Source: Opitutales bacterium
Lineage (GTDB): Bacteria; Verrucomicrobiota; Verrucomicrobiia; Opitutales; UBA9783
Direction of reading: 5' to 3'
Length of the DNA stretch: 32,000 bases
Assembly: GCA_024407725.1 (NCBI GenBank)
Contig: JAKSVZ010000003.1
Location: forward strand, 43,557 to 75,556
Positions 1,730-32,000 of the stretch are shown one piece after another (position 1 is the stretch's first letter; every line of letters begins with the position of its first letter). The notes below the pieces were generated by a model, which saw nothing but the letters and a program-made list of their open reading frames with translations, was not told where the DNA came from and searched no databases. A program made the position numbers and the translations under genes.

Positions 1730-1878
1730 GGTGCTTACAATGCTGTTAAAATGGCTATTGGACTGCGTTGATTGGCATCTGGACTGCATCAAAAATTATC
1801 AAAAAATTTTGCAAAAAACCACTTGCTTTATGACCCCCAAAAGTAATAATGAATTTAATCCTATAAAACCTTTTTATT

Positions 1879-4269: not shown

Positions 4270-4278
4270 AGGATAACT

Positions 4279-4965: not shown

Positions 4966-4990
4966 TTAGGGGAGTAAGGAGGTTTTTTTC

Positions 4991-6468: not shown

Positions 6469-6476
6469 CCGGTTGC

Positions 6477-7583: not shown

Positions 7584-7693
7584 TACCTTTTTATGGAATC
7601 ATGAGTGAGGGTAAAATCAAGCGTTGGTTCAGTGGGATGCAAAATCAGTGATTGCTATTTGGACAAAGAATCCATAAATTATAACTGTTTGTT

Positions 7694-8608
7694 ATGAGTA
7701 TTCGTTGTTTTTTATTTAAATTACTATCGTTAACGGCCTTGTTGAGCCTGATGGGATTGTCCGGTTGTCGGGAAAAGTTAACAGATTTAACCGTTAATTG
7801 TCCGCGTAATCCCTCTAATTTATATCGTTTTACCGTTGGCAGTAAAATTTCTAAATCCAAAGCGATTGCGGGTACCTTTGCGCCGATGTTAGTCATTGAT
7901 GGCAAGAGAGTGCCTTTGGAAGCGGATGCTATTAAGCCAGATGTTTACTATGTAGATTATAACTTAGGAAATGATCGAAAGAAGGCGAGGTATTACTTTG
8001 AGGTAAGTTATCAATCGATATCCAGTTCCAAATCTATCCGTACGTATACGTACACAACCCCGTTGACAGAATACGTTATTTCAGAGCATGGAGCTTCTAT
8101 GTTGCAGTTTGAACGAGCCCCAGTAGGAGCGGAAGTGCGTATCATTGGGAGCGAATTTACAGCGAACGATCGCGTGGTGATTGGACAATGTGAAGTATGG
8201 ACGACCTTTTACTCTGAAAACGCTATTTCATTTGTTGTGCCTCATTTAATGAGCGGCAAGGCTTATCCTGTATATTGCATACGGGAACGCAAAACGGATT
8301 TCGTAGGTAATTTGTTGATCGATAGCAAGCAATTGATGGTTCAACCGTCTCAATTGGAGATTGGTCAAGGCGAACAAGTGGCTTTAACAGTTAAGTTGGA
8401 TAGTCCGGTTACGGATTCGTTGGCTGTTAATGTAACAACCAATATTCCCGATAGCGTTATCATGCCCGAAGTTAAAATTGCTGCGGGAGAAGATAGCGCG
8501 ACCATAAGCCTTGAAGGCGGTGAACCAGGCGACGGAAAGCTTTATATTTCGGCCATGGGGTATGAAGAGGTAATCGTACCGATCAAGGTTTGTGCTCCGA
8601 TACAATAA
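7694..8608 (+). CDS. Lipoprotein with IPT/TIG-like and Ig-like beta domains, function unknown
   Basis: It has a signal peptide with lipobox LSG-C25. The central segment VRIIGSEFTANDRVVIGQCEVWTTFYSENAISFVVP resembles an IPT/TIG repeat. The C-terminal segment is beta-rich. Confidence 0.7.
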   Translation: MSIRCFLFKLLSLTALLSLMGLSGCREKLTDLTVNCPRNPSNLYRFTVGSKISKSKAIAGTFAPMLVIDGKRVPLEADAIKPDVYYVDYNLGNDRKKARYYFEVSYQSISSSKSIRTYTYTTPLTEYVISEHGASMLQFERAPVGAEVRIIGSEFTANDRVVIGQCEVWTTFYSENAISFVVPHLMSGKAYPVYCIRERKTDFVGNLLIDSKQLMVQPSQLEIGQGEQVALTVKLDSPVTDSLAVNVTTNIPDSVIMPEVKIAAGEDSATISLEGGEPGDGKLYISAMGYEEVIVPIKVCAPIQ

Positions 8609-8659
8609 GTTGGGCGGTTTAAGCTGAACGGTGGGCGATTCATAAGGCGGTTAGGTTGT

Positions 8660-10093
8660 TTAACCGCGTTGATTGAAAGCCCACTGATAGACTGATTCGT
8701 ATTGTGTGCTAGAGTGTGCCCAAGAAAAATCGGCTTCCATAGCTGTTTTTTGCATCTTTTGAAACAAATGAGGCTTTTCGGTATAGATGCGGTAAGCCCA
8801 ATGAACGGTATTGTAGATAGCGTCGTTGTGGAGATCGGAAAATACAAAACCGTAGCCTGTTTCGTCTGATTCGTTTAACGACTGAACGGTATCGGCTAAG
8901 CCGCCGGTTGCGCGTACAATGGGTAAAGTTCCGTAGCGCATAGCATAAAGCTGAGCTAAGCCGCAGGGTTCGTAACGACTGGGGAGGATGAACAAATCGC
9001 ATCCAGCTTGTAATCGATGGGCGAGTCCTGAGTCGTATTGGGTAATCATTCGGACTTGATTGGAGAATGGCTGTTCTAACGAGCGAAATTGGTTTTCTAG
9101 GTTCATATCACCCGTTCCCAAGATAACGACCTGCAGTTGAGTGTTGTTTAAGAGGTAGGGAAGTACATTAGCAAAGACATCCAATCCCTTTTGCCAACAG
9201 ATGCGGCTGACCACTCCTAATAGGGGGGCTTGTGTGTGTGGCAAATGAAATTGGTCGCGAATGGACTTTTTACATTCCTCTTTGGGACCTAAATTGTTTG
9301 AGGTGAAGTGGCTGGGAATCAGCGGGTCGGTTTCTGGATTCCACACATCGGTATCGATACCATTTAAAATTCCGATGAGATCCCCTGCTTTAAAGCGAAG
9401 TACGGGGTCTAATCCGCAGCCAAATTCGGTAGTTTGAATTTCTTGTGCATAGCGAGGGCTAACGGTGGTTATTTTGGTGGAATGATAAAGGGCGCCTTTT
9501 AGGAAGTTTACCTGTCCTAATGCTTCTAGGCTGGTGGAATGAAATTCGGAAAAAGGGATGCCTGCGAAGGATAAAATGGAGGGGGAAAATATGCCCTGAT
9601 ACTGAAGGTTATGGATGGTGAAAACGGTTGCGGCGGCGCTGATGGGATGGCAAGAACGTAAGGTGTTGCAGTAGACGGGGATCAGCCCTGTGGCCCAATC
9701 ATGGCAATGTATGACTTCTGGAGCCCATTGCAACGTACTACAGCTATCGAGTACCGCTCGGCAGAAGAAGGCAAAACGTTCGCCGTTATAAGTCCCATCG
9801 ACATAAATCGCGGCATCTTTAAAGTAATTAGGAGCGTCGATAAAGTAGAAGGTAATTCCATTTTGGACGACTTCATATACTTGGCATTTTTCAATCTTTT
9901 GCCCCATGTACACTGAAATATCTCTATGGCAAAACCAATCGTTTTGTGGGTGGATAAATCCATAGAGGGGCAAGAACAGCCGTACGTCATGATGGCGATT
10001 AGCTAAGGCTTTTGCGAGGCCGCTTACCATGTGACCGAGACCTCCTGTTTCCGCAAAGGGAGCGCATTCGGGGCTAGCCATTAAAATTCTCAT
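8660..10093 (-). CDS. glgA: Glycogen synthase (ADP-glucose type)
   Basis: The N-terminus MRILMASPECAPFAETGGLGHMV is the GlgA KTGGL-type motif region. The GT5 architecture is present at 477 aa. Confidence 0.93.
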   Translation of the reverse strand: MRILMASPECAPFAETGGLGHMVSGLAKALANRHHDVRLFLPLYGFIHPQNDWFCHRDISVYMGQKIEKCQVYEVVQNGITFYFIDAPNYFKDAAIYVDGTYNGERFAFFCRAVLDSCSTLQWAPEVIHCHDWATGLIPVYCNTLRSCHPISAAATVFTIHNLQYQGIFSPSILSFAGIPFSEFHSTSLEALGQVNFLKGALYHSTKITTVSPRYAQEIQTTEFGCGLDPVLRFKAGDLIGILNGIDTDVWNPETDPLIPSHFTSNNLGPKEECKKSIRDQFHLPHTQAPLLGVVSRICWQKGLDVFANVLPYLLNNTQLQVVILGTGDMNLENQFRSLEQPFSNQVRMITQYDSGLAHRLQAGCDLFILPSRYEPCGLAQLYAMRYGTLPIVRATGGLADTVQSLNESDETGYGFVFSDLHNDAIYNTVHWAYRIYTEKPHLFQKMQKTAMEADFSWAHSSTQYESVYQWAFNQRG

Positions 10094-15805: not shown

Positions 15806-17338
15806 TTATTCAGCTTTTGCTTTATTGGCTGCTTCTACTTTTTTACCTAAGGATTTAACCGATAGGAGCCATAAAGTAACGATTACCAAGAAGATACCGA
15901 ACAAGTAAGGTACGATTTGGAAGTAGGTTGCTTTGGTTCCCATGATAGATCCGACAACCGAGAACAGCAATACTTGGCAGAAAGCACCACCGGATTTTCC
16001 GAGACGTCCACCGACTACATCGACCACCGCTTTACCTTTAACCTTCATTTCTTCATCCAATGGGATGTAAGCCATTTCCTTTGTTAGGTCAAACAAGGCA
16101 TATTTGGTAGCTTTGGAGATGGTTACGATGATAGCTCCTAAGATAACTGCGACTGCAACTGGATTGGTTCCGATGTTGCTTAACATGCCTGCTAAATTGT
16201 CTTTAAAGATAATGAAGGAGAAGAATGATATACCTCCGACAATAAAGACGCAGGGGGTAATAGCGGCAGCGGTTGTCCAGCGGAACATACGTAATATATT
16301 ACCACCAATAATCAGCATAATAATCGACATAATACCGGTCCACGTCGTTACATTACTCATGAAGGTATTGTAATCGTTTTCGTTGGTATAACGTACCTTG
16401 ATTTGGCTCTTCCAAAGACCTTCGATAACGTTGACGCTAATTCCGTAGGAAATAACCAACATAGCGATTAATCCTAAGTAAGGTGAAGTAAAGATGGTCT
16501 TGAGGCTTTCGATCAAACCAGCTTTTGCTTTTTTCTTTTTGACGCCTGGTAATTCAGGTTTATCGTAGAAGCGTTTATCAGTTAATACATTTTTGTAGAT
16601 CCAGCGATAAAGCACCATGGTGCAGATACCGCAAATAACGACAACGGTCATTAAGTAGTTAAGGGTGATTTGCCAAGGATCTTCTCCCGGTAAAACTTTA
16701 GAACGGATATCTGAAGACCATTTACCAACGGCTCCGGCGAATAACAGCGAAAATTGAGCCATTAATCCGAAGAAAGCGTACATACGTTTTGCTTCAGATG
16801 TTTTGGTAATTTGGTTCGCGAACTGCCAGAAGGATAGCGATAGAATGGCGCTTCCCCAAAGTTCGGCTAATACGTAGAACAAACCATAGCTCCAGACCCC
16901 TAATAAAGCGATCGGCCAGTGCAAAGACGGGAATTGTCCTTGTAGCGCTGTAATGGTGGCTACAGATGGGTGGAAGAATTCACGATGGGGATAAATGACA
17001 AAAGCAAATAACCCGAAGAAGATGATGAACGGGGATAAGGTAGCGTAGAACAGGTGTTCATTGCTAAGAATATCGCTTGCTTTAGCGTAAATCAGCATGA
17101 ATAAGATGGCTGATGGGGTTACGCAAAACAACTTTAAGTACGAAAGTGCCTCAGCTCCTGTATTGGTAACTACCAAAGAATCCTTGATGTTACGAACGCA
17201 GGTGTAGTTGAACAGAATGAAGAAAAAAATGAAACCCATGGGGATTGCCTTCTTCAATTCATAAGAATGAATTGGGAAGAATATTTGCCGCAACTTCGAG
17301 AACTCGGGTTGTGGTTTTGATACATTAGGAATAGCCAT
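15806..17338 (-). CDS. Nucleotide transporter NTT (ADP/ATP translocase, Tlc/Npt family)
   Basis: It has about 12 TM segments. The N-terminal block EFSKLRQIFFPIHSYELKKAIPMGFIFFFILFNYTCVRNIKDSLVV is characteristic of chlamydial and rickettsial NTTs. The ORF-track start at 17389 is TTG, so I prefer the ATG at 17338 (MAIPNV). Substrate specificity (ATP/ADP versus other nucleotides) cannot be read from the sequence. Confidence 0.92.
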   Translation of the reverse strand: MAIPNVSKPQPEFSKLRQIFFPIHSYELKKAIPMGFIFFFILFNYTCVRNIKDSLVVTNTGAEALSYLKLFCVTPSAILFMLIYAKASDILSNEHLFYATLSPFIIFFGLFAFVIYPHREFFHPSVATITALQGQFPSLHWPIALLGVWSYGLFYVLAELWGSAILSLSFWQFANQITKTSEAKRMYAFFGLMAQFSLLFAGAVGKWSSDIRSKVLPGEDPWQITLNYLMTVVVICGICTMVLYRWIYKNVLTDKRFYDKPELPGVKKKKAKAGLIESLKTIFTSPYLGLIAMLVISYGISVNVIEGLWKSQIKVRYTNENDYNTFMSNVTTWTGIMSIIMLIIGGNILRMFRWTTAAAITPCVFIVGGISFFSFIIFKDNLAGMLSNIGTNPVAVAVILGAIIVTISKATKYALFDLTKEMAYIPLDEEMKVKGKAVVDVVGGRLGKSGGAFCQVLLFSVVGSIMGTKATYFQIVPYLFGIFLVIVTLWLLSVKSLGKKVEAANKAKAE

Positions 17339-17433
17339 AACTAATCTTTTCTTTTTATATTTTAAAGGTAGCGTAAAATTTTTAAGCAAACCGTCAATTT
17401 ATTTTTTGATAAATAGGATGGAAATTGAGCCTG

Positions 17434-17832
17434 TTATTGTGCTTTTAGGCGTTCAATGAAAAAGTGCGGCGGTTGGATCAACTTATGGTCTTTGTTTAAA
17501 AACACATGAACCGTAAACCCTTGAGTTAAGACGGTTGTGTCGCGCTTAATCAGGTAATTTAAGGTGAAACGTACGTGTCCCAAATCAGTAGGGGGGGTTA
17601 ATTCAATCCGAAGCTCATCATCAAAAAACGCTGGGGATTTATAGGTTAAATCGGCTTGTACAACGGGTATGGAAAATCCTTCGCGCTCCATGACCTTGTA
17701 GTCCAAATCGAGAGACCTTAGCCATTCAATACGAGCCATTTCCAGCCAAACGAAGTAGCGGCTATGATGAACAATACCCATGGCATCGGTTTCGGCGTAA
17801 CGTACGCGTAGGGTTGTTTCAAAAGCCCTCAT
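17434..17832 (-). CDS. Acyl-CoA thioesterase, YbgC/4HBT hot-dog fold family
   Basis: RVRYAETDAMGIVHHSRYFVWLEMARIEWL is the YbgC-type catalytic Asp region. The ATG at 17832 is preceded by GAGG and lies 9 nt after the atpC stop. The track start at 17838 is TTG. Confidence 0.85.
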   Translation of the reverse strand: MRAFETTLRVRYAETDAMGIVHHSRYFVWLEMARIEWLRSLDLDYKVMEREGFSIPVVQADLTYKSPAFFDDELRIELTPPTDLGHVRFTLNYLIKRDTTVLTQGFTVHVFLNKDHKLIQPPHFFIERLKAQ

Positions 17833-17841
17833 CAACAACCT

Positions 17842-18258
17842 CTAATGTTTGATAGTTTTGGTTAATTTTTGCGCGACTTGGAAACGCAAAATCTTATCTA
17901 AACGATCCAATTCTTCTTCATCCAACTGACGTTCAGTTTTTGCTTTTTCCAGCGCTTCTTTGGCCCGTTTAACCGCTTCGTCAATCGCCCCTTCATCCAT
18001 GCTGTTTACATCAATAGCAGCTTCGGTTAAAACCACTAAGTCCGATCCCAGCAGTTTGAAAAAACCAGTGTCGATAGCAATGGAGGTTGTGGATTGTGCG
18101 CTGCGATAGGTTAACGTTCCAGCCTCAATAATGCCGATAATCGGTAAGTGGCCATCTAAAATCTCAATTTCCCCCAAAGCGGTTGGCAACGTAACCGATG
18201 TCACTTGTACATCCATTACCAAACGCTCAGGAGTGATGATTTTTAGACTAAACGCCAT
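17842..18258 (-). CDS. atpC: F-type ATPase epsilon subunit
   Basis: It is last in the atp operon order. It has a beta-sandwich N-terminus (ITPERLV...) and a helical C-terminus at 138 aa. Confidence 0.9.
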   Translation of the reverse strand: MAFSLKIITPERLVMDVQVTSVTLPTALGEIEILDGHLPIIGIIEAGTLTYRSAQSTTSIAIDTGFFKLLGSDLVVLTEAAIDVNSMDEGAIDEAVKRAKEALEKAKTERQLDEEELDRLDKILRFQVAQKLTKTIKH

Positions 18259-18264
18259 AGGTTT

Positions 18265-20579
<2,315 letters not shown>

Positions 20580-20583
20580 ATGC

Positions 20584-22128
20584 TTAGGCCTGCTTTAAAT
20601 TTTGGGCACCCCATTCTTTGAAAATACTTTCCATCTGTTGTTCTAAGGATTCCGATAAAACCTTTTCGCGCCGTAATTGAGCCAAAAAGTCTTTCTTAAG
20701 ATCCATGACATAATCGGTTAACGATTTTAGGATGGTAGGCATATCGGTTAAGGAAACGGCATCAAAAAATCCCTTTTGCATGCCCCACAAGAGCACTACC
20801 TGCAATTCTGCTGGTCGCGAAACATGGGCGCCTTGCTTGATGAGCTCCAAAATATGCTGTCCGCGCGTTAATTGTTGGCGGGTTTTTGCATCCATATCCG
20901 AACCGAACTGCGTAAAGGCTTGGAGTTCTTGATACTGTGCCATATCGAGTTTTAACTGACCCGCAACCTTCTTTAGGGCTTTAATTTGAGCAGCAGACCC
21001 TACGCGCGAAACGGAAATTCCGACCGAAATAGCTGGGCGTAAGCCTTGATTGAACAGATCGGTTTCCAGAAACAGCTGTCCGTCGGTGATGGAAATAACA
21101 TTGGTTGGAATGTAAGCGGATACATCGCCTGCTTGGGTTTCAATGATAGGCAAAGCGGTTAAGGAACCACCGCCGTAATTGGAATTGAGGCGCGCTGAGC
21201 GTTCCAACAAGCGTGAATGAAGGTAGAATACATCTCCTGGGTACGCTTCACGACCCGAAGGACGCTTTAACACCAATGAAATTTGTCGGTAGGCAGCTGC
21301 ATGTTTCGATAGATCGTCGTAAACAATCAACGCATCCATGCCGTTTTGCATAAAATATTCGCCCATAGCTGTACCCGCATAAGGCGCAATGTACTGATTG
21401 GTTGCGTTTGCAGAGGCAGGAGCGGCTACCACAATCGTATATTCCAATGCACCCTGATCTTCTAAAAGCTTTAAGGTACGCGCTAAGGTTGCATTTTTCT
21501 GACCAATACACACGTAAATAGAGTAAACTGGGCGAAAATCAGGGTTGTTATCTGCAAGCCCTTGGCGGTTTAACTCTGCTTGGTGAAGAATGGCATCGAG
21601 CGCCAACGTAGTTTTACCGGTTGAGCGATCCCCAATGATCAACTCACGCTGTCCACGGCCGATAGGGAACATGGCGTCGACTGATAAAATACCCGTTTGT
21701 AAGGGTTGATCAACCGATTTACGGGTAATAATTCCAGGAGCAATTTTTTCAACGGGGTAATAGGTTTTAGTTGCTAAATCGCCTTTGCCGTCGATCGGAT
21801 GACCTAACGCATCAACCACGCGCCCTAGTAATTCTTTACCTACTGGAACGGACAATAAGTGTCCGGTGGTTTTGCAGGAATCTCCTACCTTTAGTTGGCT
21901 ATAATCACCAATTAAAATGGTTCGTACTTCATCTTCTTCCAAGTTCAAAGCAATGCCGTAAACGGAATTAGGAAATTCCACCATTTCGTTGTACATGACA
22001 TCGGATAGACCCGAGATCTTTGCAACTCCATCGGCTAACTCTTCAATCTTGCCGACGTTGGTGCGAATAGCCTTGGGTTGGAAAGAGCTGATCGCTGCTT
22101 TAATATCTGTATAAATGCTCGTTGTCAT
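20584..22128 (-). CDS. atpA: F-type ATPase alpha subunit
   Basis: It has the Walker A motif GDRSTGKT, is 514 aa, and shows alpha-type conserved blocks throughout. Confidence 0.98.
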
Positions 22129-22515
22129 CTAAGATAAATGTTGTTTGATGTTTTCTAATTGTCCTTTTAACGAGACGTCCCAACGGTTATCGCCGATTTG
22201 GAAGCGAAAGCCCCCTAATAATTCAGGATTTTCTTCTGCTACCCATTGGGTGTTTTTGTCGCTGAGCGCTTGGGCTTTGATTTGTTCCAACAATTCGCTT
22301 TGTAATTGATGGGCATACTCCAAGACAGCATAGCGATTTTTGTATTCTTTCAGGAGACAAAAGCCATAGTATTCCAAAAAGCATTTAGCATCGCGCGGAT
22401 AGCTATGAATGAGGAAGTCGACAACCTCTTTAATGCGTGCTTGCAAAGAGGATTCCTGCCCCTCAAAGGTGATACGGGCAAGCGTTTGGATCAATGCTTT
22501 ATGCTTGCGTTCCAT
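22129..22515 (-). CDS. atpH: F-type ATPase delta (OSCP) subunit, unusually short
   Basis: The C-terminal LLGGFRFQIGDNRWDVSLKGQLENIKQ matches the OSCP C-terminal domain. It is only 128 aa, against about 180 typically. The start overlaps atpF by 17 nt, and its TAG stop directly abuts the atpA ATG. Confidence 0.8.
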   Translation of the reverse strand: MERKHKALIQTLARITFEGQESSLQARIKEVVDFLIHSYPRDAKCFLEYYGFCLLKEYKNRYAVLEYAHQLQSELLEQIKAQALSDKNTQWVAEENPELLGGFRFQIGDNRWDVSLKGQLENIKQHLS

Positions 22516-23068
22516 GATCTTCCTTTTCCGCTAATAGCGTTGCTGCTTTTTGGTTAAGCTTTTGGCGCATATCATCTGTTAGGATGGAACTCAAAAGCTT
22601 TTCGGTTGCCGCTACTGCTAGGCTGGCCGTTTCATGCCGTACCTCGGATAGTAATTGGGCACGTTCCGTAACCAATGCGTTTTGGGATTGTTCTAACAAC
22701 CGAGCCATCTTTGCTTCCGTTGCCTTCGTCTGTTCGCTCGTATACAGTTCACAATCAGCTTTGGTTTTGGCCAATAGTGCTTGTGCTTCCTTTTGAGCTT
22801 TGGCTAACGTATTGAGGCGCTCTTGCTCCGCTGATGCCAATTGGGCTTTCATGTCCTCTGTGTACTTTAGCCCTTCGGCAATCTTGCTTTTGCGTTCCTC
22901 AACGGTTTTGAGAACAGGCTTGATAGCGAAGCGATAAAGGAGGTAGGAGACCAAACAAAAGTTGATCATCTGTGCCACCAACAATTCAGTTTGTACTCCA
23001 AACGAATTGGCAAGGCGCACAACCGCATTGTCAGGCGTTCCTGCTACGGCCAAAACTCCAAGAATCAT
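22499..23068 (-). CDS. atpF: F-type ATPase b subunit
   Basis: It has a single N-terminal TM segment followed by a long charged coiled-coil (KPVLKTVEERKSKIAEGL...). Its operon position also fits. Confidence 0.88.
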   Translation of the reverse strand: MILGVLAVAGTPDNAVVRLANSFGVQTELLVAQMINFCLVSYLLYRFAIKPVLKTVEERKSKIAEGLKYTEDMKAQLASAEQERLNTLAKAQKEAQALLAKTKADCELYTSEQTKATEAKMARLLEQSQNALVTERAQLLSEVRHETASLAVAATEKLLSSILTDDMRQKLNQKAATLLAEKEDHGTQA

Positions 23069-23074
23069 AAAGTA

Positions 23075-23284
23075 TTACCCTTGGTATAAGAAGAGCGAAT
23101 AAGACGCTACTGCTTGCGCGGAAGCCGTACCTGAATTGGCCTGGACCAAGATTATAGCAGAAGCGCTTGGGTTACGACCTACCTTTTCGACTGCTTTCAT
23201 TCCGATTAGGCTAACACCAATAGCTGCTGCTAAGCAACCCAATGAGGAGGTTAATCCTCGTGCGATATCTCCAACAATATTCAT
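23075..23284 (-). CDS. atpE: F-type ATPase c subunit homolog lacking the conserved ion-binding carboxylate
   Basis: It is a 69-aa two-helix hairpin with loop VEKVGRNP and lies between atpB and atpF. The position 18 residues after R-N-P, where Glu/Asp is expected, is Q57 (CAA; plus-strand ttg at 23114-23116). Confidence 0.85.
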   Translation of the reverse strand: MNIVGDIARGLTSSLGCLAAAIGVSLIGMKAVEKVGRNPSASAIILVQANSGTASAQAVASYSLFLYQG

Positions 23285-23330
23285 GTTTTTATCTTTTTTT
23301 AAATGTTTTGTACGACTTCAATGAACCTCA

Positions 23331-24173
23331 TTACTCATGAGCTTCTTCATGGTTGCATATGCTACCAATATAGACTGCTACGAGTAAAGTAAAAACGAAC
23401 GCTTGGACAGCGCCAATTAAAATTTCGAGGAAATAGAAGGGAATGGGCACTAGGAATTTTGCCCATGGAGCTAAAGCCATGATGTTGTTGATGAGGTTTT
23501 CGCCCCCAAACACATTACCGTACAAACGAAAGGATAAGGAAATCAAGCGGAACAGGATCGAAATACATTCGATAAATCCAACTGCTAAGAAGATGAAGAA
23601 TAAAAAGGTGTAAATACCAAAAGATAATTCTGATCGATCCGCCTTATTTCCAAAGATATGCAGGAGCGTTCCCTTAAGCCCTTCGTTTTTGATGACGAAG
23701 TATCCCCAAGCGAGCATGGAGATAGCCGCTAACGCCAAAGTTGCGTTAAGGTCGGCGTTGGATGGACGGAAAAAGTAAGTAAAATGATTTCCTTGATAGA
23801 AACCAATAGTACCCACTCCCGGCAACAAACTGCTCCAATTTTGTATTAAAATGTAGATGAAAAACCCAATTAACAAAGGAAATGCTTGCCCCATAACGCG
23901 CTTGCCAACAATGGGTTCTACCAGCGAATAAATGCTCTCAATAATGCCTTCAATCACCAATTGGCGTTTGTTGGGTACCATCTGCGGCTTTTTGATCAAC
24001 AAGCGCATCAGGATAATGATGGCTGCTGAAATAATCCATGTGTACAGCATCCCATTGGTAATGGGAAAATGCCCAATGTGATAAAGGACGTAGGGTTTGG
24101 GGCTTACTGCAACGCCTGCATACGCGTTACCGCTGAGTAAGCAAGCTAAAATGATAATTCCCCATTTGTACAT
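23331..24173 (-). CDS. atpB: F-type ATPase a subunit
   Basis: It has LSFRLYGNVFGGENL, which contains the essential Arg, and the helix-5 motif IGAVQAFVFTLLVAVYI. Confidence 0.93.
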   Translation of the reverse strand: MYKWGIIILACLLSGNAYAGVAVSPKPYVLYHIGHFPITNGMLYTWIISAAIIILMRLLIKKPQMVPNKRQLVIEGIIESIYSLVEPIVGKRVMGQAFPLLIGFFIYILIQNWSSLLPGVGTIGFYQGNHFTYFFRPSNADLNATLALAAISMLAWGYFVIKNEGLKGTLLHIFGNKADRSELSFGIYTFLFFIFLAVGFIECISILFRLISLSFRLYGNVFGGENLINNIMALAPWAKFLVPIPFYFLEILIGAVQAFVFTLLVAVYIGSICNHEEAHE

Positions 24174-24207
24174 GTCCGCTTTATCTTATCGTTTTTTTAA
24201 ACGTTTT

Positions 24208-25095
24208 TCAATAGGTAATTTTTGATGCCTTAATGAACCGTTTTTTAGCCCAAAGTGTCCACAGGTAGATCACCAGTAAAACGCATAGGACGAACCAAGA
24301 ATGGGTTAAGCTTCCGTTGCCCCACCAAGAGGGTGGTTGGGGGAAAAAATAATACCATTGCCGCGATAATAAAAGGACAAACACAAGACCTTGGTGAAAT
24401 CCGATGCTTGCCCATAGCGTTTGGCATTGGGTGCGTAAATTGATTAATAGGCCGCTCAAAAGGAATAGGCATAGGAAATAAGTCAGTTGAAAGCCATGCA
24501 CAATGTTAACTAGGGAACTTTTGGCGCACAAAAAACTTTGAATCCACAAGGATGGATGTTCGCTGTCGGTGCACATGGAAAAGTGCATCAAGGCAAACAG
24601 GAGCGATAAGAATAGGGTGCTTAAGCCTACGGAATAGCGTGTGCGTAACGCGTCCCATAAGAATCCACGGAACATGATTTCTTCCAAGCATACTAAGAAG
24701 AAACTGCCGACAAAAGCCCCACCGAAGCGCAAATGTCCGTCGGGGTAATGGAATACAGGGGGAATAACGGCCATGATGATGGCAAATAGCACGCACCAAA
24801 GCAAGCAGCCGGCAACAAAGGTGCTTAGGTAGTATTTAAAGGTGCTGCGTAAGTGCCAATTGCCCCAAAAATGGTTGGATTTGGATAGCCAGAGAACCGT
24901 TGCAAAGAAGCTGACCATGCGTATGCGATCGAGGTATTGCGATAAAGGTTTTGTGGCTAAATGATGGAGGGCTTTTAGCGAACACGCATGATCGATGAGC
25001 TGTACGCATTGATGAAGGAGGGGGGTTAAGATGGCTGCTCCCAAAAGGACGCACAGATATAATCCGATAAGCCAAATTAAGCTGAATTTTCTCAT
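24208..25095 (-). CDS. CPBP-family (CAAX/Abi-like) intramembrane glutamic endopeptidase
   Basis: It is a polytopic membrane protein with the motifs EEIMFRGFLWD (EExxxR) and FALMHF. It lies 34 nt upstream of atpB, in the position usually held by atpI. Confidence 0.75.
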   Translation of the reverse strand: MRKFSLIWLIGLYLCVLLGAAILTPLLHQCVQLIDHACSLKALHHLATKPLSQYLDRIRMVSFFATVLWLSKSNHFWGNWHLRSTFKYYLSTFVAGCLLWCVLFAIIMAVIPPVFHYPDGHLRFGGAFVGSFFLVCLEEIMFRGFLWDALRTRYSVGLSTLFLSLLFALMHFSMCTDSEHPSLWIQSFLCAKSSLVNIVHGFQLTYFLCLFLLSGLLINLRTQCQTLWASIGFHQGLVFVLLLSRQWYYFFPQPPSWWGNGSLTHSWFVLCVLLVIYLWTLWAKKRFIKASKITY

Positions 25096-25102
25096 GAAAA
25101 CA

Positions 25103-25179
25103 TGGTGGGAAGTACTGGATTCGAACCAGTGACCCCTAGCGTGTCATGCTAGTGCTCTAACCAACTGAGCTAACTCCCC
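25103..25179 (-). tRNA. tRNA-Val (anticodon GAC), CCA encoded
   Basis: I folded the cloverleaf by hand. The minus strand reads GGGGAGT-TA-GCTC-AGTTGGTTA-GAGC-A-CTAGC-AT[GAC]AC-GCTAG-GGGTC-ACTGG-TTCGAAT-CCAGT-ACTTCCC-A-CCA. The acceptor stem is 7 bp with one G.U pair. The T-loop is the canonical TTCGAAT. Confidence 0.93.
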
Positions 25180-25274
25180 GATGGTAAGCTTACAATGAAG
25201 CGTTGACTTGGGTTAAGCAAGCAAAAACGTATCCTTAAGCTTGTGGGGCTGTTTTTAGCCGGTATTTAAGCGAT

Positions 25275-26543
25275 TTATAGAATGGTGTTATCCGGTATAA
25301 TGCCATTTTTTTCGATGCACAAAATACCGTCTTGAATATGAATAGAGCCTTGATGAAAGCCATTTGGTTTCCCTTCGGGCGACAAGCGTACGTTGTTGCC
25401 AATGCGTACATTGCGATCCAAAATAGCATTGCGAATGTAGCAGTTCTCCCCAATGCCAATCAGCGGTGCGTTGGTTGGGTTTTCGATAGGCTCATAGTGG
25501 TCTGCTCCCATCATGTAGACGTTCTCCAATTGGCTGTTGCTGCGAATGATGGAACGGATTCCGATGACCGACCGATTGAGTTGAGCGTTGGTGATAATGC
25601 ATCCTTCGGCTACGATGGAATGGTCGACCGAGCAACTGTTCAACTTTGAGGCAGCTAGGTTGCGCGGTTTCGAGTAAATAGGAGCCCATTCATTGTAAAA
25701 ATCGAACATGGGCAGGGGGTCAGTGAGCATCAAATTGGCTTCAAAAAAAGCTCCAATGGTTCCAATATCTGCCCAGTAATCATCAAATAGATAACCGGAT
25801 AATCGGTACTTACCTAATGCGTGCGGTACGATATCCTTGCCAAAATCATGGTCTTCAGAATTTAAACATTCTTTGAGCACCTTGGCTTTAAAGGCATAGA
25901 TTCCCATGGACGCCATGCAGTAGGGTTGATCGCTGCTATCCTTTAGTTGGTTGCGTAACGAGGGGGGTAAAAATAATGTTTTAAGAACTGCTTTGTCCTG
26001 CGGTTTTTCAACAAAGCGTTTAATTTGATGATCTTCGGTTATTTCCATCAAACCAAATTGATGAGCCTGTGTAGCGGGCATAGCTTTAGCCGCAATGGTA
26101 ATATCTGCTTGGCTTTGCAGATGGTGGCGAACGAAGGCATGAAGATCCATGCGGTACAGTTGGTCGCCAGATAAAATGAGAACCACCTCATCATCGGCCC
26201 ATTGAATATGGATTAAGTTCTGACGTACGGCATCGGCGGTTCCACGGTACCAATCGTCGTTCACATTGGTTTGTTCGGCGGATAACACTTCTACAAATCC
26301 ACCGGAAAAATAATCGAAGCGGTAGCTTTCTTGAATGTGACGATGCAGCGATTCCGTGTTGAATTGGGTCAACAAGTAAATTTGATTGTAACCGGCGTGT
26401 AAACAGTTACTAATAGGGATATCAACCAATCGGTATTTCCCTCCCAAGGGTACGGCAGGTTTACAGCGTACTTGGGTTAAGGGAGCCAAACGGGATCCGC
26501 GTCCTCCGCCTAAGATAATACAGCAAACGCGTGTAGGATTCAT
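25275..26543 (-). CDS. glgC: Glucose-1-phosphate adenylyltransferase
   Basis: ILGGGRGSRLAPLTQVRCKPAVPLGGKYRLVDIPISNC is the GlgC signature, and the C-terminus has a left-handed beta-helix. The track start at 26579 is TTG, so I prefer the ATG at 26543 (MNPTRV). Confidence 0.93.
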   Translation of the reverse strand: MNPTRVCCIILGGGRGSRLAPLTQVRCKPAVPLGGKYRLVDIPISNCLHAGYNQIYLLTQFNTESLHRHIQESYRFDYFSGGFVEVLSAEQTNVNDDWYRGTADAVRQNLIHIQWADDEVVLILSGDQLYRMDLHAFVRHHLQSQADITIAAKAMPATQAHQFGLMEITEDHQIKRFVEKPQDKAVLKTLFLPPSLRNQLKDSSDQPYCMASMGIYAFKAKVLKECLNSEDHDFGKDIVPHALGKYRLSGYLFDDYWADIGTIGAFFEANLMLTDPLPMFDFYNEWAPIYSKPRNLAASKLNSCSVDHSIVAEGCIITNAQLNRSVIGIRSIIRSNSQLENVYMMGADHYEPIENPTNAPLIGIGENCYIRNAILDRNVRIGNNVRLSPEGKPNGFHQGSIHIQDGILCIEKNGIIPDNTIL

Positions 26544-26606
26544 GATGCTTGAGGGGATAAATACTGCTTGACGAACCAATGGGTTATCATACGTTTCTTA
26601 ATATCC

Positions 26607-28466
26607 ATGTGCGGTATTATTAGTTATATCGGAAAACAGGATGCCTTGCAAATTCTTATTAAGGGCCTGAAGTGCGTTGAATATCGCGGTTACGATTCAG
26701 CAGGGATTGCGATTGGCGATGAACAGCATCCCTTCCGGATTGAACGTTCGGTTGGGTACATTGAAGATTTAATCAAGCATGTGAGCCCTTTAGGATTAAA
26801 GGGGCATGTGGGTATTGGCCATACGCGTTGGGCTACCCACGGAGGCATTTTTGAAAAGAATGCCCATCCGCACGTCAGCAACGATAAGAAGTTTATCCTT
26901 GTCCACAATGGGGTAATTGAAAACTATGCTGCGTTAAAAGCCACTTTGTTAAAAGAAGGGTTTAAGTTCTACAGCGATACGGATACGGAAGTATTGGTTA
27001 ACCTGATAGCCCAGTATTATCAACAATTGGATCAATTACCTACGTCTCAACGCTTTGAGGAAAGCGTACGTAAAAGCTTGGCGGAAGTTCAAGGTACGTA
27101 TGGAATCGTGGTCATTTGTACGGATTGTCCGAATGAATTGATTGGGGTGCGTAAGAGCTCGCCGTTGGTTTTGGGAATCAATCCGGATGGTTTGTTTTTG
27201 GGCAGCGATGTAGGGGCTTTTTCGGGTCATATTGAAAATGTTGTTTACCTGTCGGATCATGAGATGGTGCATATCAAGGGCATGGATTATCAAATCACGG
27301 ATTTGATGAATGGCTCCGTAACGTCCCCATCGATTGAAACCATTGATCGTGAACAGAATACTGCCGATTTGGGCGATTTTCCAAACTATGCCAAAAAAGA
27401 GATTTTTGAACAAGGCACGGCGCTGGAAAACATGTATTTAGGGCGCTTTTCGTCCGATGGAAGCTCAGCGCATTTGGGTGGATTACAAATTACTCCTTAT
27501 GAATTGCGGCAGGTGGAACGTATTTTGTTGTTAGGCTGTGGATCTTCGCTTTATGCCTGTAAAATTGGTGCTTCGTTGATTGAAACCTACGCGCGTATTC
27601 CGGTTGATGTAGAGTATGCGTCGGAATTTTGTTACCGCAATGCTCCGTTAAATAAAAACACCTTGGTTTTTGTGGTCAGCCAATCCGGCGAAACCTTGGA
27701 TACCCTCAATGCGTTGCGCGAGGTAAAACGGAAAGGATTCCCGACCTTGGCGATTACCAATGTCGTAGGTTCGACCATTGCACGCGAAGCCGGTTGTGGT
27801 ATTTATTTGCATTTAGGAATGGAAGTTGGGGTCGCGGCTACCAAATCTTTTACCGGTCAAGTGGGTATGTTGGCGCTATTAGCTCTGTATTTAGGGCGTA
27901 TGCGCGATATGAGTTTTACCGATGGGCGTCAGTTCGTTCAGGCCCTGCAAAGCTTGCCCCAAAAGGTGAATGAGGTATTGGCCTTATGCGACAAACCGAT
28001 GCAAAAGCTCGCGAAAACCTATGTTGATTATCAGCATTGCTTTTTTATCGGCCGCCAATTGCTGTATCCGATTGCGATTGAGGGTGCGTTAAAGCTCAAG
28101 GAATTATCGTATATGCATGCAGAAGCTTATCCGGCTGGTGAGCTCAAGCATGGAGCGCTTGCGTTGATTGATCCATCCGTCCTAACCATTGTGTTGGCCA
28201 CCAACGAGGAAGTAATGGGTAAAAACATCAGTAATATGATGGAAATCAAGGCGCGGCACGGAAAGGTGATTGCCATTGGCCTTGAGGGTTGTGAAATTCC
28301 CAAAAAGGCTTACGACGAAGTGATCTATTTACCAAAAGTTTACGCAGCGTTGTTGCCCATTATTACGGTTTTGCCGCTGCAATTATTTGCGTATTATCTT
28401 GCGAGTGAACGGAACTGCAATGTAGATAAGCCGCGCAATTTAGCCAAATCGGTGACGGTTGAGTAG
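26607..28466 (+). CDS. glmS: Glutamine--fructose-6-phosphate aminotransferase
   Basis: The true start is M-CGI (ATG at 26607), giving the obligatory N-terminal Cys nucleophile. It has two SIS domains and the C-terminus KPRNLAKSVTVE. The track's 13-aa N-terminal extension is not credible. Confidence 0.96.
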   Translation: MCGIISYIGKQDALQILIKGLKCVEYRGYDSAGIAIGDEQHPFRIERSVGYIEDLIKHVSPLGLKGHVGIGHTRWATHGGIFEKNAHPHVSNDKKFILVHNGVIENYAALKATLLKEGFKFYSDTDTEVLVNLIAQYYQQLDQLPTSQRFEESVRKSLAEVQGTYGIVVICTDCPNELIGVRKSSPLVLGINPDGLFLGSDVGAFSGHIENVVYLSDHEMVHIKGMDYQITDLMNGSVTSPSIETIDREQNTADLGDFPNYAKKEIFEQGTALENMYLGRFSSDGSSAHLGGLQITPYELRQVERILLLGCGSSLYACKIGASLIETYARIPVDVEYASEFCYRNAPLNKNTLVFVVSQSGETLDTLNALREVKRKGFPTLAITNVVGSTIAREAGCGIYLHLGMEVGVAATKSFTGQVGMLALLALYLGRMRDMSFTDGRQFVQALQSLPQKVNEVLALCDKPMQKLAKTYVDYQHCFFIGRQLLYPIAIEGALKLKELSYMHAEAYPAGELKHGALALIDPSVLTIVLATNEEVMGKNISNMMEIKARHGKVIAIGLEGCEIPKKAYDEVIYLPKVYAALLPIITVLPLQLFAYYLASERNCNVDKPRNLAKSVTVE

Positions 28467-28484
28467 CTTTTTAGGGAGGATGAA

Positions 28485-29249
28485 ATGAATTCAGTACCCT
28501 TAGCAGAGATTGTTGGTTTTTTGGATACGACCCTACAAACCAAGGAGGTTGTTGATTTCCCGAATGCGTGTAATGGGCTGCAGTTGGCGAATCGTGGAAC
28601 CGTAACGCGCATTGCAGGAGCAGTGGATGCGAATATGCATAGCATACAAGCTGCGATTAAGAACGGAGCGGATTTGTTAGTGGTTCATCATGGTCTTACA
28701 TGGGGTGGGGTTCAAATCATCGTTGGTCCGTGGTATGATCTGTATTGTTCTGCAATTGAGGCGAATTTAGCTATTTATAGTGTGCATTTGCCGCTGGATG
28801 GTCATCCGCAGTACAGCCATAATGTTGGCATTGCTAAGGCGTTAGGTGTGTCGATTACGGGCAGCTTTGCTCCTTATCATGGCCATTCCTATGGAATTAT
28901 TTGTTCCGGCATGAAGCGGGATGAACTAGAGCAGCGTTTACAGAAGGTGTTTCCTAAGTCTTTGCGGCCTATTTGCTATGGTTCGGAAGCCCCAAAGGCG
29001 ATTGGTATTTTAAGCGGTAGTGGCGGACAAACGCTTTTCTTAGAAGCGTTGGTTGCAGCGGGTGTTGATACCTTGGTGACAGGCGAAGTGCATTATTCAG
29101 CCGTGAGTTTTGCGCAATTACATCATTTAAATTTATTTTGTTGTGGGCATTATGCAACGGAATCCTTTGGGGTTCACAGCTTGATGAATTTGTTGCACGA
29201 ACACACGCAGCTACCGTGTACCTTTCTTGAGGATTTTTCACCTTTTTAA
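28485..29249 (+). CDS. NIF3-family dinuclear metal-centre protein (YbgI/GTP cyclohydrolase 1 type 2 homolog)
   Basis: NGLQLANRGTVTRIAGAVDANMHSIQAAIKNGADLLVVHHGL and the C-terminal GHYATE are typical of NIF3. An SD (GGGAGGA) lies 7 nt upstream. Confidence 0.85.
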   Translation: MNSVPLAEIVGFLDTTLQTKEVVDFPNACNGLQLANRGTVTRIAGAVDANMHSIQAAIKNGADLLVVHHGLTWGGVQIIVGPWYDLYCSAIEANLAIYSVHLPLDGHPQYSHNVGIAKALGVSITGSFAPYHGHSYGIICSGMKRDELEQRLQKVFPKSLRPICYGSEAPKAIGILSGSGGQTLFLEALVAAGVDTLVTGEVHYSAVSFAQLHHLNLFCCGHYATESFGVHSLMNLLHEHTQLPCTFLEDFSPF

Positions 29250-29265
29250 TGATCAAAAGCATTGA

Positions 29266-30024
29266 GTGATTATGGCTTCGTATAGTATTGCAATTCCGGC
29301 TCGTTTAGCATCCACGCGCTTACCGGGGAAAATGTTAGCTCTGTTGGGAGGAAAACCCGTTGTCCAGTGGGTGATTGAACGGGCATTGAAGGTTAGAAAT
29401 TGTCAGGCTGTGTATGTGCTGACCGACAGCGAATCCGTTGTCCAGTTGGCTCAATCGTTAGGAGCCACAGGGCTTATGACTGACCCCGCTTGCCGCTGCG
29501 GGACAGAACGGATTGCATCGGCGTTGGATCGTATTAAGACTGATTGGGTGATCAATGTGCAGGGAGACGAGCCCTTTGCGGATACTCAGTTTTTGGAGCA
29601 GATGATTGATTATATCCCATCGATTGATGCGGATCTTTTAACGCCGGTCTATCGGTTAACATCGTTAGAGGATATCCAAAATCCGAATATTGTTAAGGTT
29701 GTGTGTGATGTCAAACAATGCGCACTGTATTTTTCGCGCAGCCCGATTCCTTATGTACGCGATACCGATCCATCGCAATGGTTAACCCGCAGTACCTTCT
29801 GGGGACATTGTGGGGTTTACGCTTACCGTCGGGATGTTTTGCAAGCTTATACGCACTTAACACCGCATCCATTAGAACAAGCGGAATCGTTGGAACAATT
29901 GCGTTTTATTGCCAATGGTTATCGCATAGCCACGTTGGAAACCAAAGGACGTTCAATTGCTATTGATACAGCGGCAGATTTAGCCTTGGCCGAACGCTGG
30001 ATTCACACGCATCCAGAAGTTTAA
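29266..30024 (+). CDS. kdsB: 3-deoxy-manno-octulosonate cytidylyltransferase (CMP-Kdo synthetase)
   Basis: It has IAIPARLASTRLPGKML and NVQGDEPF, the KdsB signatures. The start is either the GTG at 29266 or the ATG at 29272. Confidence 0.92.
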   Translation: MIMASYSIAIPARLASTRLPGKMLALLGGKPVVQWVIERALKVRNCQAVYVLTDSESVVQLAQSLGATGLMTDPACRCGTERIASALDRIKTDWVINVQGDEPFADTQFLEQMIDYIPSIDADLLTPVYRLTSLEDIQNPNIVKVVCDVKQCALYFSRSPIPYVRDTDPSQWLTRSTFWGHCGVYAYRRDVLQAYTHLTPHPLEQAESLEQLRFIANGYRIATLETKGRSIAIDTAADLALAERWIHTHPEV

Positions 30025-30132
30025 TCGTATTGGAGTATTTTTGGGAATAGATCTCGTGGGTGGAGCTTGTTCGACTGAACCCAATGGATGAATTTTTAAT
30101 TAAGGCGTTATGGATTGTCTTTTAAAAAAGGA

Positions 30133-30161
30133 TTGACATAGTTTTAGCATTTATATATAAA
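30133..30161 (+). promoter_or_regulatory. Sigma-70-type promoter P1 (TTGACA-17-TATAAA) overlapped by a 20-bp perfect palindrome
   Basis: The -35 is TTGACA at 30133-30138, the spacer is 17 nt, and the -10 is TATAAA at 30156-30161. The palindrome agcatttatatataaatgct spans 30146-30165. Confidence 0.55.
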
Positions 30162-30167
30162 TGCTTT

Positions 30168-30270
30168 ATTGCAGTTGAAGTATTAATTTCATCAAAAAAA
30201 TTTTATCATAAAAATCTTAAATAGCAAGTAAAAAATGTCCCCTATGTTTTAGGGGATGCATTATTTTCAA
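30168..30270 (+). ncRNA. Candidate small RNA 1 (about 100 nt), paralogous to candidate 2
   Basis: It runs from the predicted P1 start site to the hairpin tccccta-tgttt-tagggga (30239-30257), which is extended by atg/cat and followed by tattttc. The conserved motif gcaagtaaaaaatg lies at 30225-30238. It contains no credible ORF. Confidence 0.35.
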
Positions 30271-30317
30271 CCATTTAAAGATAAATGTGACAAGGGGACA
30301 GTAAAGGGAGAAAAACC

Positions 30318-30346
30318 TTGACGATTATATACTAAGGTTTTATAAT
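30318..30346 (+). promoter_or_regulatory. Sigma-70-type promoter P2 (TTGACG-17-TATAAT)
   Basis: The -35 is TTGACG at 30318-30323, the spacer is 17 nt, and the -10 is a consensus TATAAT at 30341-30346. Confidence 0.55.
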
Positions 30347-30352
30347 TTTAAT

Positions 30353-30465
30353 ATTAGTGGCTCCAAACCACTGCTAAACAAGAGCACTTTAACACGAAAG
30401 AAGTTCTTTTGCAAGTAAAAAGTGCTCCCTATGACTATGAATAGGGAAGGTTTCTTATTTTAGGA
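30353..30465 (+). ncRNA. Candidate small RNA 2 (about 110 nt), paralogous to candidate 1
   Basis: Its hairpins are gtgg-ctccaaa-ccac, a long stem gagcacttt...aaagtgctc, and a terminal tccctat-gactatga-ataggga (30426-30447) followed by the U-rich gtttcttatttt. The conserved motif gcaagtaaaaagtg lies at 30411-30424, 93 nt from the -35. In module 1 the same distance is 92 nt. Confidence 0.35.
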
Positions 30466-30509
30466 AACAGCTTCAATTAAAGAATCTAATAGAGTATTAA
30501 AATTTTAAA

Positions 30510-30607
30510 GCAACCAGGCACTCTACGGCACAAGCGTTTTTGACTACCGTTGCTGCATTCCTGCCCTGGCGGGGTTCACAAACCCACCTTGCATAGAACC
30601 CAGTTGC
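30510..30607 (-). ncRNA. ffs: Signal recognition particle RNA (4.5S / small bacterial SRP RNA)
   Basis: The minus strand reads GCAACUGGG...CCGC-CAGG-GCA-GGAA-UGC-AGCA-ACGG...CCUGGUUGC. It contains the domain IV signature: a CAGG/AGCA symmetric loop flanking a 3-bp stem capped by a GGAA tetraloop (30558-30561). It is closed by a 9-bp terminal helix (30599-30607 with 30510-18), and inner helices CUAUG/CGUAG and GUUUG/CAAAAAC pair by hand. The hairpin is about 98 nt. Confidence 0.7.
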
Positions 30608-30613
30608 AAAGCA

Positions 30614-30643
30614 ATCATAGCATCTTAGTTTTTGGTTAATCAA
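30614..30643 (-). promoter_or_regulatory. Putative promoter of the SRP RNA gene (TTGATT-18-TATGAT)
   Basis: On the minus strand the -35 is TTGATT (30643-30638), the spacer is 18 nt, and the -10 is TATGAT (30619-30614). The -10 ends 6 nt before the first base of the terminal helix. Confidence 0.45.
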
Positions 30644-30725
30644 GGAAGAATTAAGGGTTTAAAGCTAAAATTGCTTTACTTTTGGGGTTGTCCATTGAGA
30701 TGAATCTTCATTGTATAGAGACAGT

Positions 30726-32000
30726 ATGGATAAAACAGGTATTACTCCGACCCGTAAGGAAAATTATGCTGAATGGTATCAGCAGGTGATTCGCGCAGCT
30801 GATTTAGCGGAAAACGCTCCCGTTCGTGGGTGCATGATTATTAAACCCAATGGGTATCAATTGTGGGAAACGTTACAGCACAAGTTTGATCAAGCGTTTA
30901 AAGCAACGGGGCACGTTAATGCCTACTTTCCGTTATTTATTCCGGTTCGTTTTTTGCAAAAAGAAGCAGAGCATGTAGCAGGATTTGCAAAAGAATGCGC
31001 CGTTGTAACCCATTCGCGTTTGCAAGCCAATGAACAGGGTGTGTTGGAGCCTGCATCACCGCTAGAAGAACCTTTGATTGTACGTCCTACGTCAGAAACC
31101 ATTATTGGAGAAGCTTTTTCGCGTTGGGTACAATCGTACCGTGATTTACCTTTGTTGATCAATCAATGGGCTAATGTGGTACGTTGGGAAATGCGTACGC
31201 GTTTGTTCTTACGGACATCCGAATTTTTGTGGCAAGAAGGGCATACGGCTCATTCAACCGCAGAAGAAGCGCGCCAAGAAACCTTACAGATGCTCGAAAT
31301 TTATCGTAGGATTATTGAAGAAGATTTGGCGATTCCGGCGGTTGTGGGCGAAAAGACTGCCAGCGAACGCTTTCCGGGTGCCTTAGCGACCTATACCTTG
31401 GAAGGCATGATGCAAGACCGCAAGGCGTTACAGTTGGGGACTTCGCACTTTTTAGGGCAAAATTTTGCTAAAGCGATGAACATTCAATTTGTGGATGTCG
31501 ATGGCAAATCGCAGTATGCATGGACAACCTCATGGGGAGTAACGACCCGCCTCATTGGAGCCTTGGTGATGGTGCATTCAGATGATAACGGTCTTGTGTT
31601 GCCTCCAAAAGTTGCCAATGTACAGGCGGTTATTATGCCGATTGTTCATGACGAAGCGCAACGTGGGCAGATTGAGGCTTATTGCGATCAATTACAGCGC
31701 CAATTGCAGGCGAATGACCTAAGGATATCGGTTGATAAACGCGCTATGCGTGGAGGCGAAAAACGGTGGCAGTGGATCAAACGCGGCGCGTGTTGCCTCG
31801 TCGAAATCGGAATGAAGGAAATGGAATCGCAATCAGTCACGCTCAGTTGGCGGGATACGTTACAAAAAGAAAACCTTTCGTTAACGCAATGCGTAGCAAC
31901 GTTTGCGGATGGGTTGAAGGCAATGCAACAACGGTTGTTTGAGCGCGCGAAAAGCACTCGCGAAGCAGCAACGCAGCGGATTTCGAGCGTAGCGGATTTC
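30726..32000 (+). CDS. proS: Prolyl-tRNA synthetase (archaeal/eukaryote-like class IIa type), 3'-truncated by window edge
   Basis: It is not in the supplied ORF track because it has no stop codon in the window. I translated it by hand from the ATG at 30726 and it is open for 425 codons to position 32000. Motifs include MDKTGITPTRKENYAEWYQQVIRAADLAE, NAYFPLFIP, VRPTSET, VVRWEMRTRLFLRTSEFLWQEGHTAH and HSDDNGLVLPPKVA. Confidence 0.93.
   Translation, partial: MDKTGITPTRKENYAEWYQQVIRAADLAENAPVRGCMIIKPNGYQLWETLQHKFDQAFKATGHVNAYFPLFIPVRFLQKEAEHVAGFAKECAVVTHSRLQANEQGVLEPASPLEEPLIVRPTSETIIGEAFSRWVQSYRDLPLLINQWANVVRWEMRTRLFLRTSEFLWQEGHTAHSTAEEARQETLQMLEIYRRIIEEDLAIPAVVGEKTASERFPGALATYTLEGMMQDRKALQLGTSHFLGQNFAKAMNIQFVDVDGKSQYAWTTSWGVTTRLIGALVMVHSDDNGLVLPPKVANVQAVIMPIVHDEAQRGQIEAYCDQLQRQLQANDLRISVDKRAMRGGEKRWQWIKRGACCLVEIGMKEMESQSVTLSWRDTLQKENLSLTQCVATFADGLKAMQQRLFERAKSTREAATQRISSVADF

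Follow-up and report, generated by a model that had tools for sequence, protein, structure and literature searches.

As deposited, the F-type ATP synthase c subunit gene (atpE) of the window, that is, of the whole 32,000-nucleotide stretch of DNA that was analysed, encodes glutamine at position 57, where every relative has glutamate. The codon lies in an 82-nt patch that is probably a sequencing or assembly error: an error-rich read would have bridged a coverage dropout, and the organism would have an ordinary Glu57 c subunit. The patch was private to the MAG, statistically extreme and biased in its spectrum, and it was contradicted by an independent assembly at every site that could be checked. 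The gene, the codon and the patch are located as follows.

23075-23284, minus strand: atpE, F-type ATP synthase c subunit of 69 aa, deposited as MCQ2955809.1; normal in helix 1 and in the R37-N38-P39 loop, anomalous in helix 2
23114-23116, minus strand: codon 57, CAA (Gln) in the window (ttg on the plus strand), GAA (Glu) in every relative
23103-23184 (82 nt), minus strand: anomalous patch of 13 substitutions private to the MAG, namely M34K, G43A, K44I, I50N, L51S, M53T, L55S, E57Q, F61S and four synonymous changes

The protein MCQ2955809.1 comes from the MAG 'Opitutales bacterium' GCA_024500545.1. The open reading frame at 23075-23284 on the minus strand was translated as MNIVGDIARGLTSSLGCLAAAIGVSLIGMKAVEKVGRNPSASAIILVQANSGTASAQAVASYSLFLYQG, and this translation and the CAA at codon 57 matched the preliminary description exactly, as did a helix 2 that contains neither Asp nor Glu and ends 12 residues past Q57. 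Gln57 was thus confirmed as a property of the deposited sequence. A frameshift was ruled out, the other two frames having no c-subunit-like helix. The earlier placement of Q57 at the ion-binding column was borne out by phmmer alignments without gaps, in which the Glu of solved c subunits stood opposite Q57 (9itj_H, FTEAL; yeast subunit 9, LSEAT). The polar R-x-P loop was present, and R37-N38-P39 was invariant in the alignment of c subunits; the gene was located between atpB and atpF of an F1Fo operon. The mid-helix 2 position of Glu or Asp was occupied by Q57. The Pfam profile ATP-synt_C (PF00137) matched the window protein over helix 1 only (residues 9-44), with 21.2 bits against a cut-off of 24, and the score on TIGR01260 was 20.8, so a match across both helices above the curated cut-off was obtained with neither PF00137 nor TIGR01260.

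The distribution of the normal residue among relatives was explored with more than 20 syntenic contigs (L001-L014 and L017-L026) from cow rumen (PRJEB21624), buffalo and other samples, including the GTDB representative UBA3869. These contigs had 89-95% DNA identity to the window and the same gene order, including the TLC/NTT transporter gene. Together with the proteins P0002-P0007, they encode ...GKILVQAILGMALAEAVAF..., and the normal helix 2 of the canonical relatives reads …ILGMALAEAVAFYSLFLYQG. The preliminary description had looked to sister genomes for a GAA at codon 57 as evidence against its own claim, and GAA was present in every one of them. The nearest proteins (P0002, P0003, P0005 and P0006) were 84-87% identical and ended in ...NPSASGKILVQAILGMALAEAVAFYSLFLYQG, and the remoter Chthoniobacterales proteins P0004 and P0007 had MALAE at the same place. 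Moreover, the bases at all 13 patch sites were identical across all relatives, which represent at least four lineages from cow, buffalo and horse gut. The c subunits of canonical relatives reached 45-47 bits on the Pfam profile across both helices, and E57 of P0006 was aligned with the ion-binding Glu of solved c subunits. The ion-binding column was reached by 82 cluster representatives, of which 78 had Glu there; the other four (P0034, P0046, P0051 and P0082) were visibly frameshifted, fused or truncated gene calls, which shows that the same type of false 'carboxylate loss' exists elsewhere in public protein sets. The exact window protein was the sole member of its cluster among 5.8 billion clusters, with NCBI as the only source, and the mutated 46-nt DNA was absent from the GTDB species representatives. 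The window base at codon 57 is probably wrong.

The search for a canonical copy in the same strain gave the following results. P0006 was considered as a full-length canonical atpE of that strain because it had the predicted sequence, but it was rejected since its contigs (L017 and L018) belong to another lineage, with 94.7% identity. An exact scan with the canonical 47-mer matched only UBA3869 and one rumen contig, both of other lineages, and a lineage-specific 53-mer of helix 1 was absent from JGI metagenomes. The canonical c subunit of the clade is itself unusually short (69 aa, with helix 2 ending 12 residues past Glu57 in YSLFLYQG), and it scored 38.4 on TIGR01260, below the cut-off of 43.95.

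The state of the rest of the operon was evaluated from its gene content, its motifs and the selection acting on it. The operon had been described as otherwise intact, and the complete series a-c-b-delta-alpha-gamma-beta-epsilon was found from 24173 down to 17842. The partner motifs reported previously were also located, that is, SFRLYGN at residue 214 of the a subunit, GGAGVGKT at 154 and a second motif at 185 of beta, and GDRSTGKT at 166 of alpha, and the NTT gene reported near the operon lay at 15806-17389. The dN/dS values refer to the window branch.

23331-24173, minus strand: atpB (a subunit), intact, with SFRLYGN; dN/dS 0.036
22499-23068, minus strand: atpF (b subunit); dN/dS 0.075
22129-22515, minus strand: atpH (delta subunit), short, 128 aa; dN/dS 0.041
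20584-22128, minus strand: atpA (alpha subunit); dN/dS 0.022
19692-20579, minus strand: atpG (gamma subunit); dN/dS 0.082
18265-19680, minus strand: atpD (beta subunit); dN/dS 0.026
17842-18258, minus strand: atpC (epsilon subunit); dN/dS 0.030
15806-17389, minus strand: TLC/NTT nucleotide exchange transporter, of 510 aa if it starts at 17338, as is likely; dN/dS 0.057; adjoins the operon in all relatives

The seven ATP synthase genes other than atpE had dN/dS values of 0.02-0.08, with 14 amino acid changes in ~2,020 codons. Purifying selection of this strength on the a subunit and F1 speaks for an enzyme that works and is coupled.

The patch itself was characterized after substitutions had been polarised with five relatives from two clades. 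A total of 372 window-specific substitutions were counted in 14.3 kb, with a mean of 2.2 per 84 nt. Within the 14.3 kb, no 84-nt segment was denser than 23103-23186, which held 14 substitutions, and the next best held 9 (corrected Poisson P ~1e-5). The 14th change, at 23171, is a synonymous AAT>AAC at codon 38; it was reproduced in a Logan contig and is real. The 13 patch sites were atpE nt 101, 128, 131, 141, 147, 149, 152, 158, 164, 165, 168, 169 and 182. All window-specific changes in the gene fell in codons 34-61, and codons 1-33 and 62-69 had none. Gradual decay of a pseudogene was rejected on this account, as all hits lay within 82 of the 210 nt, the remainder of the gene had none, and the other genes of the operon were strongly constrained.

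The patch had a dN/dS of 0.73, against 0.02-0.08 for the other ATP synthase genes. Simulations of 13 random hits in the stretch gave 8-9 amino acid changes (95% range 5-12), and 9 were observed. Hence, the patch looks unselected, the amino acid outcome being that of random hits. On the coding strand, 9 of the 13 hits were from T and 9 of the 13 were into C, three were G>C, and there were no C>T, G>A or A>G changes. The bias in derived bases relative to the spectrum of the lineage itself was significant (P = 0.001-0.0025), and the patch was unlike the natural spectrum of the branch, which is transition-rich and symmetric. Helix 2 became rich in Ser, Thr and Ala because the hits fell on coding-strand T at the second position of hydrophobic codons, and its hydropathy decreased from 1.83 to 0.81.

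An independent assembly was available for comparison. Exact-protein look-ups of the a, b and beta subunits, GlmS and KdsB of the window returned one further source each, namely Logan contigs of SRR17543914, and the look-up of NIF3 found no Logan contig. Logan contigs are built from 31-mers with a minimum count of 2. The run SRR17543914 is one of 11 horse faecal metagenomes under PRJNA438436 (PMC9529974), and the MAG GCA_024500545.1 was very probably built from this same read set, judging from the 100% identity, the study description and the matching dates. Four Logan contigs tile 14.1 kb (17842-31966).

17842-23106: Logan contig L027, SRR17543914
23137-25421: Logan contig L016, SRR17543914
25395-28531: Logan contig L028, 100% identical to the window
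28520-31966: Logan contig L029, 100% identical to the window
23107-23136: sole hole in the Logan tiling, atpE nt 149-178 (codons 50-60), covering the other seven patch sites, including codon 57

Contig L016 differed from the window at five positions, all of which were patch sites (codons 34, 43, 44, 47 and 49), and L027 differed at codon 61 as well as at four third-position sites of atpD, all synonymous (19006, 19015, 19033 and 19036). The ancestral base was found at all six patch sites within the Logan contigs; the comparison spans these 6 of the 13 sites, and codon 57 itself lies inside the hole. In the range checked (17842-28531), 240 of the 250 window-specific substitutions were reproduced, including AAC at codon 38, and the Logan contigs are for this reason assigned, by sequence, to the window's own lineage. 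Furthermore, nt 101, 128, 131 and 141 are close enough to the lineage marker C114 (codon 38) to share a 31-mer with it, and therefore the canonical states sit on the haplotype of the window. At the other two junctions of the tiling, the contigs overlap by 27 and 12 nt and agree in sequence. These overlaps point to small coverage dropouts caused by low coverage, and the hole in atpE points to a larger one. Of two internal junctions, one would land in the patch with a probability of ~0.016.

The way in which such a patch could enter a MAG was considered in light of the source study. The horse faecal metagenomes were sequenced from PCR-free libraries on HiSeq3000 with 2x150 reads, and they were processed with the ATLAS pipeline, in which reads were trimmed at base quality 10 and each sample was assembled on its own by metaSPAdes 3.13.1, a minimum average coverage of 1 being accepted; the study deposited 372 MAGs and names Verrucomicrobia among their phyla (PMC9529974). 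This pipeline is permissive toward low-coverage sequence. The coverage of a low-abundance genome would have fallen to about one read at atpE codons 50-60, and the read, or read tail, that bridged this stretch would have been rich in errors. The assembler would then have closed the gap with it and trimmed away, on both sides, the short dead ends with the correct sequence. We infer this exact assembler path, and a point against it is that, with two or more clean reads available over nt 101-148, a path supported by one read would be chosen only under a particular scenario of tip clipping or gap closing. The density of hits climbs along the coding direction, which weakly fits a decaying read. The patch resembles the errors that coverage gaps and low-quality reads leave in short-read MAGs, in that a private, clustered, unselected and spectrum-biased set of changes was located at the sole hole of an independent assembly, after trimming at Q10 and with a minimum coverage of 1.

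Two further sources of error were examined. Two-colour 'dark G' base calling was suggested by 10 of the 14 plus-strand changes ending in G, and it was dropped because the likely source study used the four-colour HiSeq3000. When 22950-23350 was scanned for repeats, the inverted repeats found were all short and weak, and they gave no lead to a structure-driven sequencing error. Among the three explanations of the preliminary description, a single-base GAA-to-CAA error on an already divergent helix came closest, as far as a sequence error is concerned; the helix was not already divergent, given that the polar helix and E57Q form one patch of 13 substitutions absent from all relatives. The organism most likely has an ordinary proton-type F1Fo ATP synthase whose c subunit carries Glu57.

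A second strain in the sample would offer another origin for the patch. The four synonymous sites of atpD also separate the MAG from the Logan contigs, which is a point against an error: these differences fall within 31 nt (19006-19036), the states of the window are found in no relative, and they suggest that the sample contains either a second real strain or a short recombination tract. A second genotype therefore exists, and the patch could in principle be its allele. On this explanation, the main rival to an error but unlikely, the patch would be a real allele of a minor or co-occurring strain, or of a single DNA molecule, from the horse gut, generated in one clustered event and encoding a dead c subunit. 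Its origin would be error-prone repair synthesis or the import of a short stretch from a lineage that is unsampled and whose atpE has decayed, and the strain might bear the dead subunit briefly by importing ATP through the NTT. Two alleles at half coverage each would also make dropouts likelier inside the patch. Short clustered patches of synonymous changes, which suggest recombination tracts, are common on the branch, 16226-16307 being an example. Dense clusters of window-specific substitutions were found at 16226-16307 (NTT) and 28513-28596 (start of NIF3), with 9 per 84 nt each, and every hit in the NTT cluster was at a third codon position; these two clusters suggest short recombination imports from unsampled relatives. 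However, all the other clustered patches were filtered by selection (all synonymous), whereas the atpE patch was not, and its spectrum was unlike natural divergence on the branch (P ~0.001-0.003). A ruined atpE would not be found in a donor whose atpD is under purifying selection. Moreover, the Logan contig follows the canonical path through nt 101-148, 48 nt into the patch, the mutant path being absent or removed as low coverage, and the mutant helix was found in no other protein among the 5.8 billion clusters. Should the patch be a real allele, then it arose very recently, in a single event, as a loss-of-function variant. That the 13-site haplotype belongs to a living, NTT-bearing anaerobic Opitutales strain of the horse gut, in which a carboxylate-free c-ring is tolerated or exploited through ATP import, is improbable; if true, it would be a natural experiment in uncoupling the F1Fo ATPase.

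The earlier proposal of a functional c-ring without a protonatable carboxylate, whether uncoupled, repurposed or using another ion chemistry in an ATP-importing symbiont, is very unlikely. The frame remained open without a stop, although a stop would arise in ~30-35% of random patches of 13 hits, and the rest of the operon is intact, with the NTT nearby. A real carboxylate-free rotor ring is contradicted by the GAA at codon 57 of every sister genome, and the change was not fixed even in the same strain background. The idea of an uncoupled or repurposed complex in an ATP-importing bacterium did not hold up either, as sister lineages pair the same NTT with a canonical c subunit and the purifying selection on the a subunit and F1 of the window branch argues against it. 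Synonymous and non-synonymous hits were both raised in the patch, with the amino acid outcome expected from random hits, and the fall in helix 2 hydropathy (1.83 to 0.81) speaks against a working ring. Furthermore, broken gene calls aside, no natural single-hairpin c subunit without Glu was seen in the 82 aligned representatives. Such a ring, if real, would challenge the rotary mechanism or represent an uncoupled ATPase in an energy parasite.

The comparison with known c subunits leads to the same assignment. Like the canonical proton-type c subunit (PF00137; yeast subunit 9 and E. coli AtpE), the window protein has a single hairpin, a Gly/Ala motif in helix 1, an R-N-P loop and a gene between atpB and atpF; unlike it, the protein carries Q57 along with five changes from hydrophobic to polar residues in helix 2 and does not reach the Pfam cut-off, and the form of this clade has only 69 aa even when canonical. 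Substitution mutants of D61 in E. coli atpE are engineered or selected single changes, and replacement of the carboxylate by an amide would abolish proton translocation. The window shares with them the replacement of the essential carboxylate by an amide, but its E57Q is joined by 12 other hits within 82 nt. In a hand alignment, V24, A58 and V59 occupied what we take to be the Na+-binding positions of the Ilyobacter tartaricus c subunit. Natural rotor subunits with one hairpin that lacks the ion-binding residue are found among the duplicated proteolipids of V-type and A-type ATPases and in Acetobacterium woodii c1 (PMC9171764). These proteins have at least four helices and keep the carboxylate in another hairpin or in their ring partners (PMC9171764), whereas duplicated hairpins (~16 kDa, at least four helices) with the carboxylate kept in at least one of them were not seen in the window protein, which is a single hairpin of 69 aa encoded by the only atpE in the operon. 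The true gene of the window is an ordinary proton-type c subunit. As biology, a carboxylate-free rotor is not supported, and it is likely not a real feature.

A diversity-generating retroelement hypermutating the plus strand is exceedingly improbable: 9 of the 13 patch changes were at plus-strand A, to G, T or C, but the other 4 were not at A, only 9 of 28 A positions were changed (hand count), no second (template) copy of the region was found within the 32-kb window, and the relatives had zero variation at the patch sites. No Pfam match to a reverse transcriptase was obtained among the 30 window ORFs scanned. To our knowledge, a patch lying antisense inside a housekeeping membrane protein is also unlike the known targets.

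Several features of the surrounding genes were recorded. Only the C-terminal half of the delta subunit matched the OSCP and TIGR01145 profiles, below their cut-offs, and atpH overlaps atpF by 17 nt. This overlap and the length are common to all relatives, and therefore the short delta subunit is a clade feature and not damage. The operon has no atpI; in all relatives, the position immediately upstream of atpB is taken by an Rce1-like/CPBP intramembrane protease gene (24208-25095). A tRNA-Val(GAC) gene is found just past it, at 25103-25179. The C-terminus of the protease has a real window-specific cluster (L282W, P287F and T288I), which was reproduced in a Logan contig. The region 656-10093 encodes FlhB (flagellar or type III export), the anaerobic ribonucleotide reductase NrdD and its activase, a HemN-like radical SAM protein and glycogen synthase, and GlgC is encoded at 25275-26579. 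These genes suggest a strict anaerobe that stores glycogen and is possibly motile.

The deposited protein MCQ2955809.1 is unfit as evidence for carboxylate-free c subunits, and the apparent loss of an essential residue in a low-coverage MAG needs first to be checked against sister genomes and independent assemblies. The lineage itself is of modest interest: it is an Opitutales that is anaerobic, lives in the gut of herbivores and has an ATP/ADP-type transporter gene near its F1Fo operon. The TLC/NTT gene scored 564 bits on TIGR00769 and, with its dN/dS of 0.057, is under purifying selection; it is located downstream of the operon, and only a 4HBT thioesterase gene (17434-17838) lies between the two. 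A literature search for publications on the lineage, including as a ciliate symbiont, returned nothing specific. All relatives, whether from cow rumen, buffalo or horse gut, keep the NTT next to the operon (e.g., L001-L010), and the NTT gene suggests that these anaerobic gut Opitutales take up ATP from a eukaryotic host or partner.
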